Below, piece after piece: positions 36,920 to 52,523 of a stretch of DNA of 53,645 nucleotides. Location of the stretch: positions 1 to 53,645 of IMG/VR virus record IMGVR_UViG_3300030419_006157; one strand, 5' to 3'. A model generated the notes under the pieces. That model saw only the letters and a list, made by a program, of their open reading frames with translations. It was not told where the DNA came from and did no database searches. A program made the translations under genes and the position numbers. The stretch's first letter is position 1, and the number at the start of each line of letters is the position of its first letter. This DNA comes from a virus (lineage: Duplodnaviria; Caudoviricetes).

Positions 36920-38416
36920 TTAGTTTTTGTTTTTTAACTTTTTTCTGTAAGTGAATGTTGCTTCTTGATCTTCTAGCCATTGAAGTAGGTTTTCGTTATC
37001 AATAGAAAAACCGTTTTTAATGTATTTCAATAATCTTCTATTATTACCCCTAGGATAAGCGTCTCGTATAGAGTTTCTAATTAAAATTTTATTAGTTATA
37101 TCATTCTCAAAGGTCGGATAACAAAAGAATTCTCCTTCGCTATCTAGTGCTGCCATTTCTATAGTAAAATCAAACCAACTAATACACTCTTGAGGGGTGG
37201 TGGCGTAACAAGTTGGGTCGCCAGACTTTCCGTCCCAGCACCCAATATCCATTGAATGATATTTATACTTTGCTCCTTGAGCTAAATGACCATATTCTTC
37301 TGGAACACCTTTTGTAGTTAGATCAAAGACTGCGCCACGATCTCTAGGTAATTCGCTAATAACTTTAAATTGTTTCCATTTTAAATAGTTAATAGTCTTA
37401 TCGCGCTCTTTTGTGTTTGGGAAAAATATATCTATATCTTTTGGCGTCATACCTCCAGTAACAAAGTAATCTCTTATAGCTCCACTAGCTATCCAAAAAT
37501 ATTTAGAGCCAGATTCCTTAATCAAATCAACAAAAGGCTTCAAGTGACTTTTTAGCCCTTCAACATTTATCGCTTTAACTTTAGCTTTATAGTTTAAATT
37601 GATTCTCTTGATTGGTTCATTCATTGTTTCAAATCCTCTAGTTAAAAACTTATCATATTTGCGATAGTCAGCATCCTTTTCTAGTCGTTCTTTTGTAGCT
37701 TCTGATATTTCTCCCGAATCGTAATAAAATTGGTATCCTTTACTCCCGCTGGCATTCTTCTTTTCCGCTGGGACATACTCATGGTGAAAATAATTTAACA
37801 AGAAATTTTTAAAATTATTATCGTTAAACTCTGCCACGTAGTTTATTTCATCTATGTAATCCGGCAATGTCCATAAATTGCGAGCGTCCTCATCTGTAAT
37901 CAAAAAATTAAAGAAAGTATCTAATGAAACTTTTCGTGGGTCCGACTGCCCCGACATTGATTCTATTTCTTTTCTTAAGGGGTTCGCCAAGTCTTCTGCG
38001 TCATGGCGCTTCCTTTGACTCTTTGACCAAGAGTACAAAGAGCAAATGATATCCTTTGGGTCTCTAAGGAATGTAAAAGTAAACCATCCATTGTCATTGA
38101 AGGCTTTAATGGTTTCAGGACACCAATTAATCATATGGTTATGGGCAAAGCCAGACTCAATATTTTTTGTAGCTATTTCCAGTAGCTCTTCCTTCGTCCA
38201 ATCTCTATGAAGGTTTCGCTTCACCTCTTTCTGGGAAAAGTCCCACCAAGAATTAAACTGAGGTATTTTTGGTATAACAAAATCTCGTAAATATTTTTGA
38301 GTATACACTCCCGCACATTTGCCATAGTGAATGAAAGCTATCTTTTTAGGCGCATGTTTCCAAAGACCCGTATTCGGATCTACTTCTCCCCCCTCAACTA
38401 CTGAACTTCGGCTCAT
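36920..38416 (-). CDS. Sulfotransferase-like domain fused to nucleotidyltransferase (poly(A) polymerase/CCA head-like) domain
   Basis: N-half FIHYGKCAG...TFLRDP; C-half SGAIRD...PKDIDIF...FDFTI. Confidence 0.7.
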   Translation of the reverse strand: MSRSSVVEGGEVDPNTGLWKHAPKKIAFIHYGKCAGVYTQKYLRDFVIPKIPQFNSWWDFSQKEVKRNLHRDWTKEELLEIATKNIESGFAHNHMINWCPETIKAFNDNGWFTFTFLRDPKDIICSLYSWSKSQRKRHDAEDLANPLRKEIESMSGQSDPRKVSLDTFFNFLITDEDARNLWTLPDYIDEINYVAEFNDNNFKNFLLNYFHHEYVPAEKKNASGSKGYQFYYDSGEISEATKERLEKDADYRKYDKFLTRGFETMNEPIKRINLNYKAKVKAINVEGLKSHLKPFVDLIKESGSKYFWIASGAIRDYFVTGGMTPKDIDIFFPNTKERDKTINYLKWKQFKVISELPRDRGAVFDLTTKGVPEEYGHLAQGAKYKYHSMDIGCWDGKSGDPTCYATTPQECISWFDFTIEMAALDSEGEFFCYPTFENDITNKILIRNSIRDAYPRGNNRRLLKYIKNGFSIDNENLLQWLEDQEATFTYRKKLKNKN

Positions 38417-43346: not shown

Positions 43347-43463
43347 GAATTTTCGACCCTGAAAGAAAGTACGTGTACGTATAATACGTATGCGTACTAA
43401 ATTTTCGACCCTGAATAGTCGCTTCGCGAATATTCGACCCTAATTGACCCTGATTAGACTACC

Positions 43464-43533
43464 TTATTTGGCCTTCGACCCTAAAAGAGGCGTTTTATTT
43501 GGCGTTCGACCCTAAAAGTGGCGTTTTATTTGG
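43464..43533 (+). repeat. 31-bp tandem direct repeat
   Basis: ttatttggc(c/g)ttcgaccctaaaag(a/t)ggcgtt twice, plus a partial third copy. Confidence 0.9.
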
Positions 43534-43613
43534 GTTGTTCACAAAAAGCCGGTGAAATTGTTAATAACTTCTTGATTTTGTGGATAACTTTTTAAATTGT
43601 GAATAACTTTTTC

Positions 43614-43641
43614 TTGTAATTAAAAAAAATTTTGCTATAAT
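43614..43641 (+). promoter_or_regulatory. Sigma70-type early promoter
   Basis: TTGTAA-16-TATAAT with extended TG. Confidence 0.8.
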
Positions 43642-43649
43642 CAACGGAA

Positions 43650-43718
43650 ATGTTAGAAATACTAGTAATTGCGGCATTTATCATGGTTATTGACAGGTTG
43701 TCAAAAGGCGGTGAATAA
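43650..43718 (+). CDS. 22-aa hydrophobic micropeptide (not in ORF track)
   Basis: MLEILVIAAFIMVIDRLSKGGE, directly after the promoter; two paralogues nearby. Confidence 0.65.
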   Translation: MLEILVIAAFIMVIDRLSKGGE

Positions 43719-44015
43719 GTGCGGGATTACCTGTGAATAACTCTGTGAATAACTTGTGAATAACTCTGAAGCATATAGTACGTATGCGTACTATACGTGT
43801 GCGTATGAAATGATACGTGTGCGTATGATTATGGTAACAACATGGTACGTATACGTATGATTGTTGTTAGCCGTTGTTACCTGTTTTTTTCGACCCTGTA
43901 CGTACACGTACTAAATGTGAATAACTTTTTTAAAAAGTTGTGTCATAAAGCTTGACTTTTTTTCGTAATGTGGTATTATGTATTGTCGCGCATGGTGTGC
44001 GACACCATACAAAAA

Positions 44016-44288
44016 ATGAGTAATACAAAAAACAAAGTGTCCGAAACTACCGTTCGCAACCTGCTCGCCGGAGCAAATGACGCAAGAGAGTTAAACACTC
44101 AAATGGCCGAAATGCAAAACGGATTGATCCTCACCGATCAGGATGTTGCAAATCTGGAAAGCACGGTTCAACTGCTACAGCAGCAGCAGGAGCGACTCAA
44201 TCAGGCATATGAAATCCTGAATAAGTTGCCAAGCGGGATAAAAGCAGTCTATCACAAGACTGATCCTAACGGCAGATACCGGAGCTAG
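44016..44288 (+). CDS. Small coiled-coil early protein
   Basis: Start MSNTK after TTGACT..TATTAT promoter and a leader hairpin; terminator at 44302-44336. Confidence 0.7.
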   Translation: MSNTKNKVSETTVRNLLAGANDARELNTQMAEMQNGLILTDQDVANLESTVQLLQQQQERLNQAYEILNKLPSGIKAVYHKTDPNGRYRS

Positions 44289-44562
44289 TCAGAGTATCTC
44301 AGCCCCTCACCGGAAACGGTGGGGGGTCTTTTTTTGCTCTCCAAATGATATAGTACGTACACGTACTATACGTATGCGTACTATACGTACACGTACTATG
44401 CGTACACGTACTGTACGTATGCGTATCAAATTTCGACCCTAATTGACCCTAAAAAAGTATATTATTTGGCTACTTATATACAAAACGGGCCTCTACGTTA
44501 TTTGACTTATTTGATAGGAAACGGGCCTGTGAATAACTCGATTATTTTTTTTCGTTATTCTG

Positions 44563-44591
44563 TTGACATACGAAACAAATTACTGTAGGTT
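44563..44591 (+). promoter_or_regulatory. Sigma70-type early promoter, near-leaderless
   Basis: TTGACA-17-TAGGTT; ATG 9 nt after the -10 hexamer. Confidence 0.75.
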
Positions 44592-44600
44592 TATATCGTT

Positions 44601-44873
44601 ATGAGCAACTTGAAACTACATCACAACCGAAACGCCAAACTCGCCGCCGCAGTAACCAACCACATCAAAATGCGGAAGCGGCAGGGCGCAGATCACACGG
44701 TAGCCAAAACAGAGGCCTACCTTTTGTATGGTATCAAAAACCAAAACAGCCCAGACGTTAATTACGCTTGGTTGAATCATGCGCGGGAATACTTCGCGCC
44801 AGAAAACGTCCAAGAGCAATATTACTCATTCTTGGAAAAGTATCACGGCAAAGACTTGGTTCCCTCTGCCTAA
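44601..44873 (+). CDS. Hypothetical early protein
   Basis: 90 aa between promoter and CUUCGG hairpin. Confidence 0.75.
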   Translation: MSNLKLHHNRNAKLAAAVTNHIKMRKRQGADHTVAKTEAYLLYGIKNQNSPDVNYAWLNHAREYFAPENVQEQYYSFLEKYHGKDLVPSA

Positions 44874-44908
44874 TGAAACGGGGAGGCCTTCGGGCCTCCC
44901 CTTCCCTG

Positions 44909-44983
44909 ATGCAAGAAATAATAATATTCGCCATCGCTTTTTTAATACTAGAAAAAATATTCTCTGATGAAATTACTCACTAA
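44909..44983 (+). CDS. 24-aa hydrophobic micropeptide
   Basis: MQEIIIFAIAFLILEKIFSDEITH; same register as 43650 and 47597 peptides. Confidence 0.6.
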   Translation: MQEIIIFAIAFLILEKIFSDEITH

Positions 44984-45239
44984 AGAAATCAAGAAGCAAC
45001 TCCCCGCATTATATACAAATGAAAACAACCCCAACCCCAAGGCAATTGTCAAGTTCTTCACTCCGTTTGCGAATTGGACATGGTACGCGACAGAGTTTGA
45101 CGGTGAGGACACCTTTTTCGGATTGGTGGAAGGACACGACAAAGAGCTTGGCTACTTCAGCCTTGCCGAGTTGGAGAGCATGGGTCACAAAATTGAAAGG
45201 GATCTCTACTTTAAGCCAACGCCATTAAACGATTTGTAA
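44967..45239 (+). CDS. DUF2958-family protein
   Basis: VKFFTP...TWYATE.D..D.FFGLV.G...ELGYFSL.EL...IERDLYF. Confidence 0.85.
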   Translation: MKLLTKEIKKQLPALYTNENNPNPKAIVKFFTPFANWTWYATEFDGEDTFFGLVEGHDKELGYFSLAELESMGHKIERDLYFKPTPLNDL

Positions 45240-45253
45240 AGTGTGTTGCTCAT

Positions 45254-45279
45254 GGGCGGCCTTCGGGCCGCCTTTTTTT
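45254..45279 (+). terminator. Rho-independent terminator (UUCG loop)
   Basis: ggcggcc-ttcg-ggccgcc-ttttttt. Confidence 0.9.
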
Positions 45280-45500
45280 GACCCTGAATATAGTACGTAT
45301 ACGTACATTTTTTCGACCCTGAATAGTTGCTCCGCAAATTGACCCTAATTGACCCTGAAAATTAATATTATTTGGCCATATTTAAATAAAACGGGCAAGT
45401 AGTCAAGCAAAAGTTATTAACACTTATTTGGATCAATGTGAATAACCCGCGAAAAAATATCTCGACATTCAAAAGGCTTTATGACTATAATGCCCCCGTT

Positions 45501-46130
45501 ATGCAACAGTACACATTCACCATCGAACGCGAGCAAAGCGATTTTGCCTCGCAAATTGAAACACTCGCCACCATCGGAACCCGTGCAATTTCCGTTACCC
45601 TACAGCGTGAAATGCACGTTGGCAAAACGCCTTGGGGAACCAAAGGTGATTTTAAGCTGAACACGCCAAGCGAATTTTTTGGCATGGTTAAGACTTGGAA
45701 AATGACCGGATTGGTTAACGTGGATTACACCGCCGCCGTCAATCGCCACCTTTCAAAGATTGGCCACTCGGATGCGGGAACGTGGGAAGGCAGCGGATCG
45801 TGGGGAACCCGCCAAGGCGGAACCCGCGCCAACATTGGCCACAAGCTCCAAAGCTACTTGCAACTTTTCCGCTGGTATGGTGAGCGCAACCTTTTTACGC
45901 GCTACAGCGTGGACAACGTGCAAATCGACCCTGAAAGCTTTTCAGAGCATCTGTACGCCAAGGGATCAAGCTCCCCAAGCATCCGAACAAGCGACGGCGA
46001 GCGCGTCCCCGTTCCGTTTTACGTTTCGCGAGTGAAGTTTGAAGATATTCTGGAATTGGAAGGACTGCCAAAAATCCAAAGCGAACCACGCGAGCGGATG
46101 CTTGCCGAATATAGGCTTTCAGATTTATAG
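45501..46130 (+). CDS. Conserved phage early protein (paralogue of 42418..43026)
   Basis: Start MQQYTF after TCGACA..TATAAT; DY...VNR.L...G....WG.R.....HK...YL. Confidence 0.75.
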   Translation: MQQYTFTIEREQSDFASQIETLATIGTRAISVTLQREMHVGKTPWGTKGDFKLNTPSEFFGMVKTWKMTGLVNVDYTAAVNRHLSKIGHSDAGTWEGSGSWGTRQGGTRANIGHKLQSYLQLFRWYGERNLFTRYSVDNVQIDPESFSEHLYAKGSSSPSIRTSDGERVPVPFYVSRVKFEDILELEGLPKIQSEPRERMLAEYRLSDL

Positions 46131-46154
46131 ATTCAAATTCCCAAGGAGGAAACC

Positions 46155-46187
46155 AATCTGCCCGATCCCCACGGGCAGATTTTTTTT
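46155..46187 (+). terminator. Rho-independent terminator
   Basis: aatctgcccg...cgggcagatt followed by a T-run. Confidence 0.85.
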
Positions 46188-46333
46188 GACCCTAAATCGA
46201 CCCTGAAAAATCCACTACGTGGATTTTGACCCTAAAGGATCTGGTTATTTGATAGATTGTGAATAAGCTGGCGTTCATTGTGAATAACTTTTTCTTGGCA
46301 TGAAAACGATTTTAGACTAGTCTTGGCGGCGTT

Positions 46334-46579
46334 ATGAGTAACACTGACATTCAACTGCACAAGGCCACCGCCGAGCAGATTAATCAGATCGAGGATCTGG
46401 TCAATTCTGGATCGGGGCAAGGCTTCAGGGATCTGCTCGCGTGGATCTACAAGGCGCAGATCCGCCAAGCGGATACTGCGGAGATCGCCAACATGATCGC
46501 CCACGATCTGCCAATGCTCGTGGGGGATCGTGACGGCCTCCCCCGATCCGCAGGGGCCGAGGATCTGTATTCCCTTTGA
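46334..46579 (+). CDS. Hypothetical early protein (GATC-rich gene)
   Basis: TTGGCA-17-TAGTCT promoter, near-leaderless ATG, terminator at 46598-46626. Confidence 0.75.
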   Translation: MSNTDIQLHKATAEQINQIEDLVNSGSGQGFRDLLAWIYKAQIRQADTAEIANMIAHDLPMLVGDRDGLPRSAGAEDLYSL

Positions 46580-46768
46580 GGATCCTCAGAATCACCAACG
46601 TCGCCTTCGGGCGGCGTCTTTTTTTTGACCCTAATTGACCCTAAAGGGTTAAGTTATTTGACCCTGAAATATTTCAGTATTTGACTTATTAACAATCGGG
46701 TGGGGAATTGTGAATAACTTTCTTATTTTTTTCTTGTAGTAAAATCAATTTTAGTGTTTAATCTAACC

Positions 46769-47092
46769 ATGCAAACGAACTACGTAATCCAAATTCAAGA
46801 CATCGAAAATTACGGCCTCCACAGTGACGAGCCTTCCCATTATTGGAAATTCAAAGGCGGGGATCTGCTGGTGGTGGAGAATGCCCCTACCCGTGCCGCT
46901 ACCGTAATCGCGGTGGTCAATCTTCTCAAGTGTCAAGGCGGCATGGCCTTCCAATCCATTATTCGCGGATGGGATCAACATAGCGAAATTCCCGCCGAGA
47001 TCCGCAATGACGAGTGGGCTACTTTCATCGATTGGGCCGACCTAGAGGCAGACGCCAACGAAAAATTCGACCCTGAAAAGGTGGAGGTGTGA
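46769..47092 (+). CDS. Conserved phage hypothetical protein
   Basis: Leaderless ATG 46769; Q..ENYG.H....YWKFKGG motif. Confidence 0.75.
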   Translation: MQTNYVIQIQDIENYGLHSDEPSHYWKFKGGDLLVVENAPTRAATVIAVVNLLKCQGGMAFQSIIRGWDQHSEIPAEIRNDEWATFIDWADLEADANEKFDPEKVEV

Positions 47093-47141
47093 ATAACTTT
47101 TTCTTGCAATAAAAATAATTTTATGATTTAATAAGCGCGTT

Positions 47142-47342
47142 ATGAGATTCACATTTAAAAACTTCATGAGTGATGTTGACACCCACGTTCAAATCCGTTG
47201 TGGTTTAGGCATCGATGACTTGCCCGACGTTAACTTTCACGATTTTTGGTGGAAGGGAATTGACGAGGCAGATTGGCAACATATGGTTGAGGCAGCAGCA
47301 GACGAGGCCTTGAATAGTGCAGGATTTGAAGGAGTGATTTGA
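47142..47342 (+). CDS. Small acidic early protein
   Basis: TTGCAA-17-TTTAAT promoter; GLGIDDLPD.NF.D.W motif. Confidence 0.75.
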   Translation: MRFTFKNFMSDVDTHVQIRCGLGIDDLPDVNFHDFWWKGIDEADWQHMVEAAADEALNSAGFEGVI

Positions 47343-47414
47343 AAATTCGACCCTGAATAACTTACAAAAATAATCCTTGCATTACGAAAAAAATTAGTAT
47401 ATGGTTATATCGTT

Positions 47415-47600
47415 ATGAGCGAACAATATAAAACTAGAGCAGAGCGCGAACTCGTTTCGTGGAAACTATGGGCCGTCAATATGGGAATGTTGCGCGAGAT
47501 ACACAAGGAGATCGAAGAAAAAAATTCGACCCTGAAAGAAGATCCCGTAGTGTATACGGCAAATTCAAAATATCAAAATGAGTATTCGATCATTGTATGA
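47415..47600 (+). CDS. Small hypothetical early protein
   Basis: TTGCAT-17-TATGGT promoter, near-leaderless. Confidence 0.7.
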   Translation: MSEQYKTRAERELVSWKLWAVNMGMLREIHKEIEEKNSTLKEDPVVYTANSKYQNEYSIIV

Positions 47601-47665
47601 TGGAGGTTTTTGTGATCGCCCTAGTCATCTATATAGTGGACAGATATTCGACCCTGAATGAGTAA
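47597..47665 (+). CDS. 22-aa hydrophobic micropeptide (not in ORF track)
   Basis: MMEVFVIALVIYIVDRYSTLNE; ATGA overlap with upstream gene; terminator at 47701-47726. Confidence 0.65.
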   Translation: MMEVFVIALVIYIVDRYSTLNE

Positions 47666-47909
47666 ATGATTTTTGGTTAGGGTTGTTTGTTGCGTAATAA
47701 AGGGAGGCCTTCGGGCCTCTCTTTTTCGCGTCATTTTTTGACCCTAAAAGCTACGCTTTTGACCCTGAATGAGTGTTTATTTGAATAATATACCATAAAA
47801 TGGGCATTCTGTCAATGTTTTTTTATTACCAAAATAAATTTGATTGTGAATAACAATAACGAAAAAAAAGCTTGCATAAATTTTTATATCTGTTATTCTC
47901 TTTTCTGTT

Positions 47910-48614
47910 ATGGGAAACGCAAAACTAAAATTCGGAAAGCCAAATTCAAAGCTTAAAAAACTACAGGCAAAACGCGGTGTGAAATTGATCACCTTTACCT
48001 TGCCAAGCGGCCACACTTGCCCCGGTGCAAAGGATTGCCTTGCAAAGGCGGACAAGGTCACCGGAAAAGTTAAAGACGGAAAGCAAACAGAATTTCGCTG
48101 TTTTATGGCTTCACTTGAAGCGGTTTTTCCGTCACTGCGTGAATCCGTTTGGCACAATTTGACCCTGATTAAAAACGCGCTCAAAAATAGCGTTGAAGCT
48201 TGCGCGGATCTCATTTGCGAAAGCTTGCCGAAAAAGTTTGATATCGTGCGCGTCCACGTTGGCGGCGATTACTTTTCCCGCAACTATTTTTTGGCGTGGT
48301 GTGAAGTTGCCAAGCGCAACCCTGAAAAGATTTTTTACTCTTACACTAAAAGCTTAAAAATTATTTCTGGAATTGATAAACCTAAAAATCTAGTATTGAC
48401 TGCGTCCCGTGGTGGCAAGTTTGACGATATGATCAAAAAGCTTTCACTTAAAGAAGCAAAGGTTGTCTTCAGTAAAGAAGAGGCGCAATTGCAAAAGCTT
48501 GAAATTGACACCGACGACGAAAAGGCCGCATACGGCAAGAAAGACTTTGCCCTTTTAATTCACGGTGTGCAGCCAGCAGGAAGCAAAGCGGCGGCGGCAG
48601 TGAATGCATTATAA
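47910..48614 (+). CDS. GP88-like (radical-SAM-related) phage protein
   Basis: FTLPSGHTCPGAKDC...CFMA, VRVHVGGDYF, FYSYTKS. Confidence 0.75.
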   Translation: MGNAKLKFGKPNSKLKKLQAKRGVKLITFTLPSGHTCPGAKDCLAKADKVTGKVKDGKQTEFRCFMASLEAVFPSLRESVWHNLTLIKNALKNSVEACADLICESLPKKFDIVRVHVGGDYFSRNYFLAWCEVAKRNPEKIFYSYTKSLKIISGIDKPKNLVLTASRGGKFDDMIKKLSLKEAKVVFSKEEAQLQKLEIDTDDEKAAYGKKDFALLIHGVQPAGSKAAAAVNAL

Positions 48615-48636
48615 TAGTGCGCCCATAACATAACAA

Positions 48637-48678
48637 GGGCGGTGCAGGATCCACTCGTGACCTGTGCCGCCCATTTTT
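48637..48678 (+). terminator. Rho-independent terminator
   Basis: gggcggtgcagg...cctgtgccgccc-attttt. Confidence 0.75.
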
Positions 48679-48866
48679 CGACCCTGAATAGGTCTTCGAC
48701 CCTAGATAGATTTGACCCTGAAAGAGTGTTTATTTGTCTAGTAGTGAATAAGCTGGCGGTTTTTTGACCCTGAAAGGACTCCTTATTTGTTTGGTTGTGA
48801 ATAAGCTGGCAATAAATAACGAAAAAAAAGCTTGTAATCAAATCGTTTTTACTGTTTAATAAAACC

Positions 48867-49100
48867 ATGCAAACGCAAGAGTGGACAATCATCGGACGCA
48901 CATACAAATTTGGTCATCTCAACTACGAGGTTGGATGCGGTGGAACGGAAACCCCCTATTGCTGGAATGGCAAGTATTACCTCATGGTCTGGAACAAGGC
49001 CGAAAAAAAGCATGAGCATTATTGTTTCGAGGATGATCTCTTTTATCAGTCAGTTGGTTATAGCGATGATGATTGGCAAGGGTGCAGTCACTTCGATTGA
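48867..49100 (+). CDS. Hypothetical early protein
   Basis: TTGTAA-17-TTTAAT, ATG 6 nt later; GGTE.P...NG..YL..W motif. Confidence 0.75.
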   Translation: MQTQEWTIIGRTYKFGHLNYEVGCGGTETPYCWNGKYYLMVWNKAEKKHEHYCFEDDLFYQSVGYSDDDWQGCSHFD

Positions 49101-49183
49101 ATTCGACCCTGAAAGAAAGCTTTGTGAATAACTCTCTGAAGTTTTTTCTTGTAATGAAAACGAATCTATGATTTAATAAAAAC

Positions 49184-49372
49184 ATGATGAGCAACACGAA
49201 TACAAACAATCCCGAAAATAACCCTAACAGTCACAACGACCCACAGAGTGAACTGCGCGACCTAATCCAAGTCCAACCAGAGGAAGCGTGGGAACTCTGG
49301 GGAACCAATTCTTCCGGTGTCGAAGAATGGGATGCCCAAGTTTGGCAAGACATTAACTTCATGGGAGAATAA
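49184..49372 (+). CDS. Small acidic hypothetical protein
   Basis: TTGTAA..TTTAAT promoter, leaderless. Confidence 0.7.
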   Translation: MMSNTNTNNPENNPNSHNDPQSELRDLIQVQPEEAWELWGTNSSGVEEWDAQVWQDINFMGE

Positions 49373-49545
49373 TGAAAAACAACTTTTTCTATACTAAAAA
49401 AGGGGCGAATCTCTGGGCCAAATCACAAAGGCTAAAGGGAGCAAAGGCAAAAGTAATCAAATTGTCCGAGCCGAGTTATGTCGGTGGCTTCAATTACGAG
49501 GTGCAAGTAACTGGAGAGCCGTCTATATTCGACCCTGAAAAATAA
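49372..49545 (+). CDS. Small basic hypothetical protein (57 aa, not in ORF track)
   Basis: MKNNFFYTKKG...SIFDPEK; TAATG coupling. Confidence 0.6.
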   Translation: MKNNFFYTKKGANLWAKSQRLKGAKAKVIKLSEPSYVGGFNYEVQVTGEPSIFDPEK

Positions 49546-49592
49546 TAAAGTTTTTTCTTGTAATAAAAATAAAATCCTGTACTATAAGAACC

Positions 49593-49961
49593 ATGAGCTA
49601 CGAATACGAACTTGAATACCTCTTTGAGGAAGTTGAAAAGAATGGCAAACTGTATAGCGTTGAAGCCACCATCGGGTATGACGCCGAAATGGTTGACAAC
49701 GGAATCGGCCCCTATGAGTTTTGGGGTGCGCGGGGAACCGATGTTCTGATGGAGGTCGAAATTGGCAACAGCGGCATCATCAGCATCGACAAAATCGAAG
49801 ATGAGGACTGCAATGAAATTGACCCTGAAACCATCTCAATCTCAGACATTGAGGATTGGTTGAAGCCCTTTTACCAGAAGGGATACCGCGACAGGTGGAA
49901 CCCTGCGCGGTGGTACGATGAGGCCATTGAGAATGATGCTCAGAAAAATTTTGAAGAGTAG
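49593..49961 (+). CDS. Highly acidic early protein (possible DNA mimic)
   Basis: TTGTAA..TACTAT promoter; very high D/E content; GIGPYEFWGARG motif. Confidence 0.75.
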   Translation: MSYEYELEYLFEEVEKNGKLYSVEATIGYDAEMVDNGIGPYEFWGARGTDVLMEVEIGNSGIISIDKIEDEDCNEIDPETISISDIEDWLKPFYQKGYRDRWNPARWYDEAIENDAQKNFEE

Positions 49962-49984
49962 GCTGCTCTCATAACAACTAAAGG

Positions 49985-50011
49985 CGGAAAGGGAAACCTT
50001 TCCGTTTTTTT
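49985..50011 (+). terminator. Terminator ending the + strand early array
   Basis: cggaaagg-gaaa-cctttccg-ttttttt. Confidence 0.9.
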
Positions 50012-50220
50012 ATTGTTAAAATTTGACCCTGAATTTCTTAAAATCAGCGAATTTCTCATCGGAGAAAACACCCCTTTTCACGAAATTTTTTCGACCCTAA
50101 ATTGACCCTAGATAGTTATTGACCCTGAAAAATAACACTTATTTGTTTAGCCCTGAAAAAGCCGACCGATTTATTTGACCCTAATTAAATCAGTTTATTT
50201 GAGCTAATTGACCCTAAAAT

Positions 50221-50796: not shown

Positions 50797-50808
50797 ATTG
50801 CGTATATC

Positions 50809-51015
50809 CTACCAAAGCTCATCTTCATTGTCAACGTTTTTTTTATTATCAAAAACCTTTTCGTCATCTAGGAAACCCTCGGTGGATAGGTATTTGAAAA
50901 TAGCCATTTGTCTTTCTTTGGTCATGCCCCCTTCGGAGCTAATTGAAATATTCTTGTTGGTTTTATCTAGTAGAACTTCTACTCCGTTTATCAATAAACA
51001 ATTTAAGGTACTCAT
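50809..51015 (-). CDS. Small hypothetical protein
   Basis: MSTLNC... after TTGACT..TACGAT promoter; KYL..EGFL. Confidence 0.65.
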   Translation of the reverse strand: MSTLNCLLINGVEVLLDKTNKNISISSEGGMTKERQMAIFKYLSTEGFLDDEKVFDNKKNVDNEDELW

Positions 51016-51067
51016 AAGATGCCCCAACCGTGAGGCTGGGGTAATCGTAACCTTACTCTAGGTAAAG

Positions 51068-51247
51068 TCAAGATTCAATTGGATCGCGTTTAACGATCTC
51101 GATTTGTGGGTCGTATCCATCATGATTGATAAGCATACTCCGAACATCTTCTAGTTCGCATGATGGTAGATAGAAAACCGTATCGATTTTCTCTTTATTG
51201 AGATAGACATCCCAACTCGTCATTACTTGGCTAACGTGTCTTAACAT
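51068..51247 (-). CDS. Small conserved phage protein (59 aa, not in ORF track)
   Basis: W.VYL....IDTVFY......V...LI.HDGY.P.I; leaderless after TTGACT..TACAAT. Confidence 0.7.
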   Translation of the reverse strand: MLRHVSQVMTSWDVYLNKEKIDTVFYLPSCELEDVRSMLINHDGYDPQIEIVKRDPIES

Positions 51248-51282
51248 GGCTCTATTGTATCAAGGTTATTTTTATAGTCAAC

Positions 51283-51832
51283 AAAAAAAACAGTCTGCTC
51301 GTGCTTACTCGCCCCTAACAGGTCGCGTGTCCTGTTCGCTGCGTTAGTCCTGCCAAGGCTGTGTTTCGCCTCCGAGCAAACCTAGAGAGACACCATCGGC
51401 GGTTTCCCGTTTCCCCACCTTTCGGCTCCACTTTCTTCGTATAGTGGCATTTAAGGCTGCGCCTTTATTACAACGAGTATGTTTCTCTCCTGTTCCCTTT
51501 CGGGAAATTGCTGTCGGTGTGAGGGGCTCGAACCCTCCCCCGTCCCTATCGTGTCACCGTCTAGCTTCAATGCATCTCCACTAGGGGCTTTCAGCCACGG
51601 GCGGTATTGCGGTACTTAACGAAATTCGTCAGAGGTTATAACCGTAATACTTCCAGTCTCACCAACATAAATTGATTCCCACGGTTTTGTATGATGTAGT
51701 CTCCCTAGGGCTACGACGACTACAACCCGCGCCTGTATTAGCGCATCTTTGTCGTGGGCGTTGCAAGATCTGGGCATCTAGTGACGGAGGGCGTTAGTAC
51801 CGAACCGTTTAGGGCATCATCCCCTGCAACTG
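51283..51832 (-). ncRNA. Putative multi-domain structured ncRNA transcript (~540 nt)
   Basis: No credible ORF; GC-rich; TTGACT-17-TAAGTT promoter at ~51838-51866; five successive closed stems; ends in stem plus U8. Confidence 0.65.
51512..51667 (-). ncRNA. tRNA-like element with enlarged interior
   Basis: Acceptor-like stem TGTTGGTG/CACCGACA, T-arm GAGGG-TTCGAGC-CCCTC, D-loop-like AGACTGGAA; no canonical anticodon arm and no encoded CCA. Confidence 0.7.
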
Positions 51833-51883
51833 ATATTAACTTACTACAATTAGTTTCGTAAGTCAACACTTTTTTTAAATTAA

Positions 51884-52076
51884 TGAGAGAGAGGATTTCT
51901 TGTTTGCCTCCAACGTTTTCGGGGTCACAGCCAAGATAGTTCAAGTCTGTCCCTACTTCGAGCCAACCTTACAGACCCCCAAGAGATTGGTGATCTCCTA
52001 GTCCGTAACATTGCACCTTAGCTGCTATGACAACAGCTTATTCGGTCACTCTCTTAGGGTCTCCGTCGAGTCCCTA
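51884..52076 (-). ncRNA. Putative structured RNA
   Basis: Non-coding; GAGAG/CTCTC closing stem with internal AGCTG/CAGCT, GAGAT/ATCTC and TCTGT/ACAGA helices. Confidence 0.5.
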
Positions 52077-52091
52077 AATTATTTAAAAGAA

Positions 52092-52496
52092 CTACTTATC
52101 TTCTTTTACGATGTACACCTTCTGTCCATCGATAAAGACATCCCTTGCATAATGCACGGGCTCCTTTGTTTTAACGTCTACAAAGGATTCATACTTATAA
52201 GGATTATAAGTCACCTGCCTAAGCGTCTTAGGCTTCCTAGCTTTACGCTCCTCTAAAGATTTAACCTTACCTAGATCGTGAACATAACCGCGCACGGTTG
52301 CGTGGACGTTCTTCCGTCTGGTTTCTAAAACTCTCTGCCTTCCCGCTTCGCTAACATTAAAGTCTATGCGCCCATAATGACCCTTCTTACCAACTATCCT
52401 TATAGCGTGGGTATGCTTTACAACAAGGCCCGTTTTGCGATCTTTCACGCTCAAGCACTTCTTATGTAAGTTGTAATATACTTCTACTGCCCTCAT
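52092..52496 (-). CDS. Conserved phage hypothetical protein
   Basis: VYYNLHKKCLSV...VSEAGRQRVL...KNVHA.VRG...YNPYKY motif; own TTGACA promoter. Confidence 0.8.
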   Translation of the reverse strand: MRAVEVYYNLHKKCLSVKDRKTGLVVKHTHAIRIVGKKGHYGRIDFNVSEAGRQRVLETRRKNVHATVRGYVHDLGKVKSLEERKARKPKTLRQVTYNPYKYESFVDVKTKEPVHYARDVFIDGQKVYIVKEDK

Positions 52497-52523
52497 TGTC
52501 TTTATAGACTATCAAAAAGATAT

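Follow-up and report, generated by a model that had tools for sequence, protein, structure and literature searches.

Phages are known to carry GOLLD and ROOL, complex-folded RNAs that often lie near transfer RNAs (tRNAs), phage T4 holds the RNAs RNAC and RNAD in its tRNA gene cluster, and MALAT1 mascRNA is a tRNA-like unit in a longer transcript that is cut by RNase P and RNase Z. The stretch described here lies on the minus strand (51866 to 51283, on which all array features are read) of the IMG/VR viral contig IMGVR_UViG_3300030419_006157, whose 53,645 bases, with an estimated completeness of 34%, are called the window. It is probably a single transcription unit of about 549 nucleotides (nt), which is built as a tandem array of independently folding and independently evolving small RNAs named M1, M2, TLS (a tRNA-like RNA), M4, M5, and M6. 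Comparison with related loci identifies TLS as the most widely conserved part of the array and as a putative gene in its own right, and TLS would need a function of its own because its inner domain is invariant and it often stands alone.

Cleavage of the plant mitochondrial t-elements by RNase P and RNase Z makes the ends of neighboring RNAs (PMC1920247), and the tRNA-like units of the murine gammaherpesvirus TMERs are also described as being cleaved by RNase P and RNase Z. The t-elements, TMER units, and mascRNA resemble TLS in being non-canonical tRNA-like folds within longer transcripts. They are organellar or eukaryotic, whereas TLS is a phage RNA, known here from its sequence, which has a large invariant domain and can stand alone. 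The T4 RNAs RNAC and RNAD are small stable RNAs for which PMC9697503 gives no known function. The arrays of the marine phages are far more diverse than these and mostly lack true tRNAs, with 2 of 60 loci having one within about 90 nt; both are genuine tRNA-Cys(GCA) genes, located on the same strand about 90 nt upstream of TLS (L136, 2908-2981; L150, 5273-5346). In contrast to GOLLD and ROOL, the array has no Rfam match and its domains are separable modules.

The YrlA-type Y RNAs join a tRNA-mimicking module to a second functional module, and PMC4201824 describes one tRNA-like Y RNA that is cleaved by M1 RNA (RNase P) and receives CCA, and names the 7-base-pair (bp) acceptor stem as a major RNase P determinant. 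In YrlA, both ends of the RNA are located in the Ro60-binding stem. TLS is without an Rfam match. The TROVE family (PF05731, Ro60) was found in none of five viral records, including a complete 158-kilobase (kb) genome, while control genomes gave matches, and the PolyA_pol/CCA-enzyme family gave sub-threshold matches of 13 to 15 bits, with no convincing CCA-enzyme gene among them. In engineered tRNA scaffolds, a payload RNA in place of the anticodon arm is processed and stabilized in the cell, as described in PMC3753655 and PMC3401473. The exact layout of this laboratory design is shared by TLS, which would be a natural example.

Marine phages encode manA, a structured RNA about 190 nt long that was first proposed as a cis-regulatory element of the 5' untranslated region (UTR; PMC2864571). 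According to a 2026 preprint (10.64898/2026.07.01.735769), manA RNAs self-assemble into closed oligomers, 60-mer cages among them. In the window, a manA-like RNA immediately precedes the array on its 5' side.

Layout of the array

The array, the promoter from which it would be transcribed, and the upstream manA-like RNA are composed of the following features, with the supporting evidence in brackets.

51838-51878, minus strand: sigma-70-type promoter with an A-tract (sequence read; kept in L118 and L130)
51861-51866, minus strand: -35 element TTGACT, with a 17-nt spacer to the -10 element
51838-51843, minus strand: -10 element TAAGTT, a weak box
51760-51830, minus strand: module M1, closed stem-loop domain at the 5' end of the predicted transcript (weakly supported fold)
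51678-51758, minus strand: module M2, closed three-way domain (covariation, folding z-score)
51512-51667, minus strand: TLS, tRNA-like RNA of 156 nt (covariation over 41 sequences)
51505-51511, minus strand: 3' trailer and linker NCAAUUU (sequence conservation)
51493-51506, minus strand: module M4, 5-bp hairpin with a GAAA loop (folding z-score, recurrence)
51384-51490, minus strand: module M5, multi-hairpin domain closed by GAGAGA/UCUCUC, with a GNRA loop (recurrence in 9 other loci)
51283-51381, minus strand: module M6 (51381-51293) and the U8 tract (51290-51283) (covariation, folding z-score)
51880-52073, minus strand: manA-like RNA, outside the array in the same noncoding RNA island (Rfam RF01745)

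The original prediction, made from the sequence of the window, had proposed a TTGACT-17-TAAGTT promoter followed by consecutive closed domains, which included a tRNA-like unit and a hairpin with a GAAA loop, and ending in U8. All of these elements are present, with six domains in total, and the promoter is retained in both loci that share M1 and M2 (L118 and L130). The promoter was not listed by a consensus scanner because its -10 box is weak, and transcription would start at about 51831-51830. The U8 tract lies at 51290-51283, and the M6 closing stem together with it is likely an intrinsic terminator. A U run follows M6 only where M6 ends an array (the window, L118, and L103), and elsewhere an ACAAUUU linker is found instead. 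The next promoter (TTGACT-16-TACAAT) begins at 51281, 2 nt past U8. The repeat that had been seen in the first and last domains is also present, with ACTAACGC at 51798-51791 in M1 and at 51348-51341 in M6, both on the minus strand and the only two copies in the window; two or more copies occur window-wide in 21 of 100 shuffles, so that such a repeat is not rare by chance.

Every domain of the array has a closing stem of its own, and folding revealed no long-range pairs linking one domain to another. The folding energy of the whole stretch (558 nt) is close to that of shuffled sequences (z = -0.85, with 21 of 100 shuffles folding equally well), and its significance must therefore come from the comparison with other sequences. 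Folded separately, M6 (z = -4.30) and M2 (z = -3.36) are more stable than all of their 200 shuffles each, followed by M4 (-2.14), M5 (-1.91), M1 (-1.32), and TLS (-0.31). The longest open reading frame (ORF) overlapping the stretch encodes at most 68 amino acids (aa).

Related loci and module shuffling

Related loci, numbered with L, were collected from two directions. The gp82-like gene (PF25735) at 52496-52092 has 133 relatives in IMG/VR, 80 loci of which were kept. TLS homologues came from DNA pattern scans, where a 17-mer scan first gave 4 further IMG/VR copies (two of its six new loci, L083 and L085, are without TLS) and a conserved gapped pattern then retrieved 70 contigs, 9 from IMG/VR and 61 from marine metagenomes. 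A two-sequence covariance model (R1), which in its first pass over 82 loci around gp82-like genes matched only the window and one other contig, matched 68 of the 69 sources, with L113 giving no match. The 5'-truncated matches in L142, L122, L153, and L146 were dropped, leaving 64 copies with 42 unique sequences, and 41 of these, with the truncated L151 left out, were aligned with MAFFT without being fitted to any structure. The modules of the window were compared by blastn to flanks of up to 900 nt on either side of every TLS. Further pattern scans of IMG/VR with M5 and M6 gained L164 alone, and a scan for M2 gave no matches beyond the known copies. All runs and contigs that contain the stretch or its relatives are marine, and a blastn search of the INPHARED phage genomes with 51200-52100 gave no match.

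Five close relatives (L002 to L006) are 94 to 98% identical to the window over the gp82-like gene and manA, and all homology ends at 51877, precisely at the start of the array's promoter region. L118 has the complete arrangement together with manA and the downstream gene, with identities ranging from 74% (M2) to 100% (M6), and L130 carries the promoter followed by M1, M2, and TLS. The remaining loci combine the modules differently: TLS is followed by M4 and M6 in L103, L120, L125, and L147, by M4 and M5 in L108, by M5 in L089, L133, L141, and L116, by an extra hairpin and then M5 in L102, L104, and L110, and by M6 in eight loci, including L088. The order in L088, and in L164 behind a divergent TLS, is promoter, GNRA leader hairpin, TLS, M6, manA, and terminator. 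A 57-nt piece of TLS lies upstream, not downstream, of manA in L007/L082, with L082 having the order TLS-manA, and in the complete 158-kb genome (G001, which holds L002 and L089) TLS and M5 are surrounded by different genes, at a distance of about 83 kb from manA. Altogether, 32 distinct contexts are found downstream of TLS, and the flanking genes differ in nearly every related locus.

Because close relatives miss the whole block and the modules recur in other orders and combinations, the stretch reads as an insertion-like block of independent modules, not as parts of one large RNA. The original prediction had left the choice between a new large RNA and a polycistron of small RNAs; the separate conservation of the modules, their shuffling, and the absence of the array as a block speak for the polycistron, and the large RNA is not supported.

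The promoter type is likewise conserved. In 48 of 57 distinct related contexts, the 300 nt ahead of TLS contain a TTGACN-16/18-TAnnnT site on the TLS strand, and we estimate that such sites arise by chance at a rate of about 0.014 per 300 nt. The -10 box ends 6 to 10 nt ahead of G1 of TLS in 12 of the 57 contexts, in several of which the next promoter and a protein gene directly follow TLS, and TLS can therefore be a gene of its own.

Fold and conservation of TLS

TLS begins with U-1 and G1 (51666), followed by a 7-bp acceptor stem, a D-loop with UGG, a variable hairpin A, helix B (CCCGU/ACGGG) enclosing the conserved domain, and a 5-bp T arm with the loop UUCGAGC, and it ends with a discriminator A at 51512. 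In the proposed fold, 88.3% of the cells of the 41-sequence alignment are paired, compared to 37 to 59% when the 3' partners are slid by 1 to 3 columns, and 22 of the 34 pairs change on both sides, with none of 500 shuffles reaching the observed values. Covariation is seen in 6 of the 8 pairs of the acceptor stem (97.3% of cells paired) and in 4 of the 5 pairs of helix B (99.5% of cells paired), which replaces the anticodon arm, and helix C and the closing helix of hairpin A covary as well. The T stem has three invariant G-C pairs, and its outermost pair covaries. Covariation across homologues, which had been proposed as a check, is thus seen for TLS, and also for the M6 and M2 pairs. RNAalifold had initially placed helix B as CCGCCC/GGGACGG, which was replaced by the covarying CCCGU/ACGGG.

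Several positions are constant in this alignment. GGGUUCGA is invariant in the 41 sequences, and the UGG of the D-loop, GAAAGC, and GGUGAYACGAUA are invariant or nearly so, the latter two being held by the branched domain of 60 to 80 nt that is enclosed by helix B. U-1 and the discriminator A after the acceptor stem are each found in 37 of 41 sequences, and the first pair is G1-C72 in 31 and G-U in 7 more. The covarying stems contain many G-U pairs, such as the U-G that 19 of 41 sequences have at one position of the acceptor stem, and therefore the minus strand is the RNA strand, in agreement with the earlier argument that G-U pairs favor structure at the RNA level. The NCAAUUU trailer, ending in AAUUU, is near-invariant 3' of TLS whichever module comes next, and CAAUUU also precedes TLS and follows M6 in L088 and L164; the trailer is a putative nuclease site. 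Three variants of the helix C loop have palindromic cores (AUGCAU, GCGC, and GUAC), which, like the tip of M2, hint at a loop-loop dimerization that might be compared to the manA assemblies.

The copies of TLS are 156 to 210 nt long and fall into two main subtypes and a more distant one (L164), and exactly one copy is present in each of the five viral records searched. The divergent type at L164 (8885-9035) lacks the GGUGAYACGAUA block, was missed by R1, and has the promoter-TLS-M6-manA layout of L088. The TLS family is therefore wider than the pattern scans show.

TLS shares with tRNAs the 7-bp acceptor stem with a discriminator base and the T arm of 5 bp with a 7-nt loop (U-U-C-R-A-N-N). A D arm is not formed, since the UGG lies in an unpaired junction of 9 to 11 nt that is followed by a variable hairpin of 20 to 90 nt, and an anticodon arm (5 bp, 7-nt loop) is replaced by helix B and the branched domain. 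ARAGORN called TLS neither as a tRNA nor as a tmRNA in any of the 60 loci scanned, and the Rfam tRNA model (RF00005) does not match the stretch at E values up to 10. We therefore rejected TLS as a true tRNA, based on the missing D stem, the branched domain of 60 to 80 nt in the place of the anticodon arm, and the lack of ARAGORN and Rfam matches.

TLS also resembles the tRNA-like domain of transfer-messenger RNA (tmRNA) in layout, as both have an acceptor stem, a T arm, and a stem-less D-loop with GG, and in both a helix from the strand just before the T arm leads into a specialized domain. TLS differs by the extra hairpin between the D-loop and the helix and by a length of only 156 to 210 nt. 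Position 3:70 is U-A in 27 sequences, C-G in 7, U-G in 4, and G-C in 3, with G-U in none of the 41, and no tag reading frame is kept, with candidate frames differing by subtype and being shifted by 1-nt indels. The tmRNA model (RF00023) gave no match in the window at E values up to 10, and the best tmRNA score, from one variant, was 16.9 bits against a cut-off of 47 and covers the T arm only. TLS was rejected as a tmRNA on the missing G3-U70 pair, the missing conserved tag frame, the negative ARAGORN result, and the model score far below the cut-off.

The other modules

Among the 6 sequences of M6, 5 of 19 pairs change on both sides, which none of 500 shuffles reaches. The inner hairpin of M2 has six pairs that change on both sides among 3 sequences, and its tip is palindromic in both variants (CUAG and CAUG). 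M4 is found 3' of TLS in L118, L103, L120, L125, L147, and L108 with identities of 95 to 100%.

M5 and M1 are conserved, and their folds are putative, that of M1 being weakly supported and that of M5 lacking significant covariation. M5 is found in 9 other loci (80 to 97% identity) in four different arrangements, with 1 of 20 pairs changing on both sides, a value matched by 104 of 500 shuffles. A CC/GG hairpin considered for M5 was dropped, as it clashes with the GGUGG/CCGCC helix. M1 carries the ACUAACGCCCUC loop motif, and its stems are kept in all three sequences with no pair changing on both sides. The M1 motif (YUAACGCCCUC tip) recurs in the hairpin A tips of other TLS copies and in L102, where the element that makes up hairpin A of many type I TLS copies is present by itself as the extra hairpin.

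A further module, N1, is absent from the window. It is about 70 nt long, its core is conserved, its outer stem shows covariation between variants, and it is found 150 to 600 nt downstream of TLS in 19 of the 57 contexts, for example, in L123, L101, L086, L139, L106, and L132. The Rfam searches of L086 and L087 gave no match for N1. N1 is often preceded by a small GUGGUGCUGG...CCAC hairpin.

The manA-like RNA upstream

The region 52073-51880 matches the manA model (RF01745) over the full model length with 45.2 bits (E = 5e-10), below the cut-off of 55.2, and its homologues in related loci reach 49.1 to 68.2 bits. It starts 18 nt past the stop codon of the gp82-like gene. The manA model matches none of the six array modules. 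A manA-like RNA lies within 900 nt of TLS on the same strand in 18 of the 57 distinct contexts, and manA was found once in three of the five viral records searched, not always adjacent to TLS. Neither the manA-like identity of this element nor the status of TLS as a gene had been part of the original prediction.

Apart from manA, Rfam searches over 50800-52400 at E values up to 10 gave chance-level matches only, Rfam 15 at gathering thresholds gave no match in the window, and ARAGORN found no tRNA or tmRNA gene there. The earlier statement that the array belongs to no known family thus holds for the stretch at both gathering and permissive thresholds.

Occurrence in RNA libraries

Parts of the stretch are present in 20 of the 24 runs listed, including six metatranscriptomes. 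We compared four metatranscriptome runs from four studies over 50900-52500. Contigs of M4/M5/M6 (51293-51507) are present in all four, spanning 51298-51491 (194 nt, identical to the window), 51338-51507, 51347-51487, and 51293-51491, the last of which (run X19) is extended upstream by a different sequence. M5 and M6 are joined in one contig, whereas in another, from a relative, M5 is joined to a different module. A further contig from one run covers manA (51893-52047). TLS, M1, M2, and the flanking genes are not covered in the four runs, which says nothing on their absence.

Processing and alternative explanations

In the reading that we regard as probable, the array would be transcribed from the sigma-70-type promoter near 51831 to the M6 stem and U8 at 51283, and host tRNA-processing enzymes would cut the precursor. 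RNase P would cut ahead of G1, and RNase Z, or RNase E together with exonucleases, at the NCAAUUU trailer; RNase E prefers A/U-rich single strands. TLS has the features that such processing would use, namely a 7-bp acceptor stem that would stack on a 5-bp T stem, an elbow predicted from the T loop and the GG of the D-loop, U-1/G1 at the 5' end, and a discriminator A followed by what appears to be an unpaired A/U-rich trailer. Cuts at both ends of TLS would separate an M1-M2 RNA, the stable tRNA-shaped TLS, and an M4-M5-M6 RNA, and these products might then act in trans as stable structured RNAs.

Several points weigh against this reading. The -10 box of the promoter is weak, the thermodynamic signal of TLS alone is nil (z = -0.31), and the folds of M5 and M1 are without covariation. 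TLS, M1, and M2 are uncovered in the four RNA runs, and the restriction to M5 and M6 may reflect their highest conservation. The RNA contigs are assembled, strandless, and without reliable ends, and the ends at 51491 and 51293/51298 are more likely assembly branch points at module boundaries than RNA termini. TLS also appears not to be merely a processing signal, because it begins at the apparent transcription start in 12 of 57 contexts, leaving little or nothing for RNase P to remove. Finally, some modules may work together, because the arrangement is complete in both the window and L118 and an RNA contig spans the M5-M6 junction.

The latter observations would also fit a single multi-domain RNA of about 550 nt like GOLLD or ROOL, with the domains as variable peripheral parts. 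The stretch is bounded by one promoter and one terminator, L118 keeps the whole arrangement, contigs of the RNA runs span the M5-M6 junction, and the GNRA loops and palindromic loop cores could mediate interdomain contacts. We consider this quite unlikely, since the modules occur alone or reordered in most related loci and in 12 of 57 contexts a solitary TLS has a promoter to itself, and since every domain has its own closing stem, with neither an interdomain pairing nor an Rfam large-RNA match found. A cis-regulatory role, with the stretch being the 3' UTR of the gp82-like gene or containing leaders or riboswitches for the downstream small genes, recalls the initial proposal of manA as a 5' UTR element (PMC2864571), and read-through is possible, as the interval from the upstream gene through manA to the array shows no terminator. 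The array, however, has a conserved promoter of its own and ends in a stem and U8 with a new promoter 2 nt on, and its flanking genes differ in nearly every related locus, which makes such a role very improbable.

TLS might also be a decayed tRNA or tmRNA gene or the tRNA half of an attachment site, with the other stems being due to chance or acting at the DNA level, for example, as recombination cassettes. The T arm and acceptor stem do resemble a tRNA or tmRNA 3' end, up to the 16.9 bits of one variant in the tmRNA search, CAAUUU flanks TLS on both sides in the manner of a direct repeat, and two of the records holding TLS are classed as proviruses. A decayed gene is nevertheless hard to reconcile with two acceptor strands that are both present and covary, motifs beyond the tRNA-like parts that are invariant over 41 sequences, an own promoter, and one copy per record in all five records. 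The opposite strand would have A-C in place of the G-U pairs, which therefore speak for RNA. With G-U at 3:70 in none of the 41 sequences and no reading frame kept, we find this explanation scarcely credible. A more far-reaching idea, which we offer tentatively and think unlikely, is that TLS is a natural tRNA scaffold with an invariant effector domain and that it forms, together with manA and at least five undescribed families (M1, M2, M5, M6, and N1), a set of CAAUUU-reshuffled cassettes acting in infection. Through the upper half of a tRNA, a phage RNA would be processed, stabilized, and bound by factors as if it were a tRNA. The RNAs might assemble into particles, with the palindromic loop cores of TLS and M2 as kissing contacts, or they might be decoys or sponges for host factors that bind the tRNA elbow and acceptor end, such as RNase P, the CCA-adding enzyme, EF-Tu, SmpB, or defense toxins that modify tRNA 3' ends.

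Relation to described RNA families

The kinds of RNA to which the array can be compared, tRNA-like processing elements, phage small stable RNAs such as T4 RNAC and RNAD, and manA, are already known. The TLS, M1, M2, M5, M6, and N1 families and their arrangement as cassette arrays, as judged from their sequences, match nothing in Rfam 15, and we found no account of the array modules in the literature on phage manA RNA and on tRNA-like and tmRNA-like phage RNAs. PMC10690425 gives 8,495 unnamed candidate structured RNAs predicted from IMG/VR, and this list or the additional files of PMC2864571 may already include some of the modules.

Phage noncoding RNAs are poorly charted, and the locus shows that in a group of marine phages many different structured RNAs are clustered in compact islands, which are driven by promoters and whose RNAs are exchanged in the manner of cassettes. 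If TLS is processed like a tRNA, it would be the bacterial-virus counterpart of the eukaryotic t-elements, TMERs, and mascRNA, and it would also be a natural precedent for the engineered tRNA scaffold. The TLS, M6, M2, and N1 families are ready for covariance-model searches, RNA-end mapping, and structural work.

Other features of the window

The genes of the window include a large terminase, PhoH, sugar-nucleotide enzymes, and an endolysin-like gene. A 498-aa protein adjoining PhoH (36920-38416, minus strand) has a weak PHROG nucleotidyltransferase match (E = 8e-8) and no Pfam match.

Allowing for up to one mismatch, the window contains 44 copies of the motif T[TC]GACCCT[GA][GA]A, compared to 4.0 +/- 2.0 expected, and none of 100 shuffles reaches 44. 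On the plus strand, 37 of the copies lie at 43353-50218 in a 7-kb block of small genes, where a single intergenic gap often contains several of them (such as those at 50023, 50091, 50102, 50119, 50175, and 50208), and the motif looks like a phage-specific promoter, operator, or iteron motif. Within this repeat zone, about 60 nt (50034-50094) are 88 to 92% identical in L082, L086, L087, and L088, in an orientation opposite to TLS, and follow a terminator-like hairpin after a plus-strand ORF that ends at 49961.

Downstream of the array, on the minus strand, TTGAC(T/A)-16/17-TAnnAT sites are located at 51254-51281, 51044-51071, and 50806-50834 ahead of genes for 59-aa, 72-aa, and endolysin-like 169-aa proteins, respectively, giving a series with one promoter for each gene.

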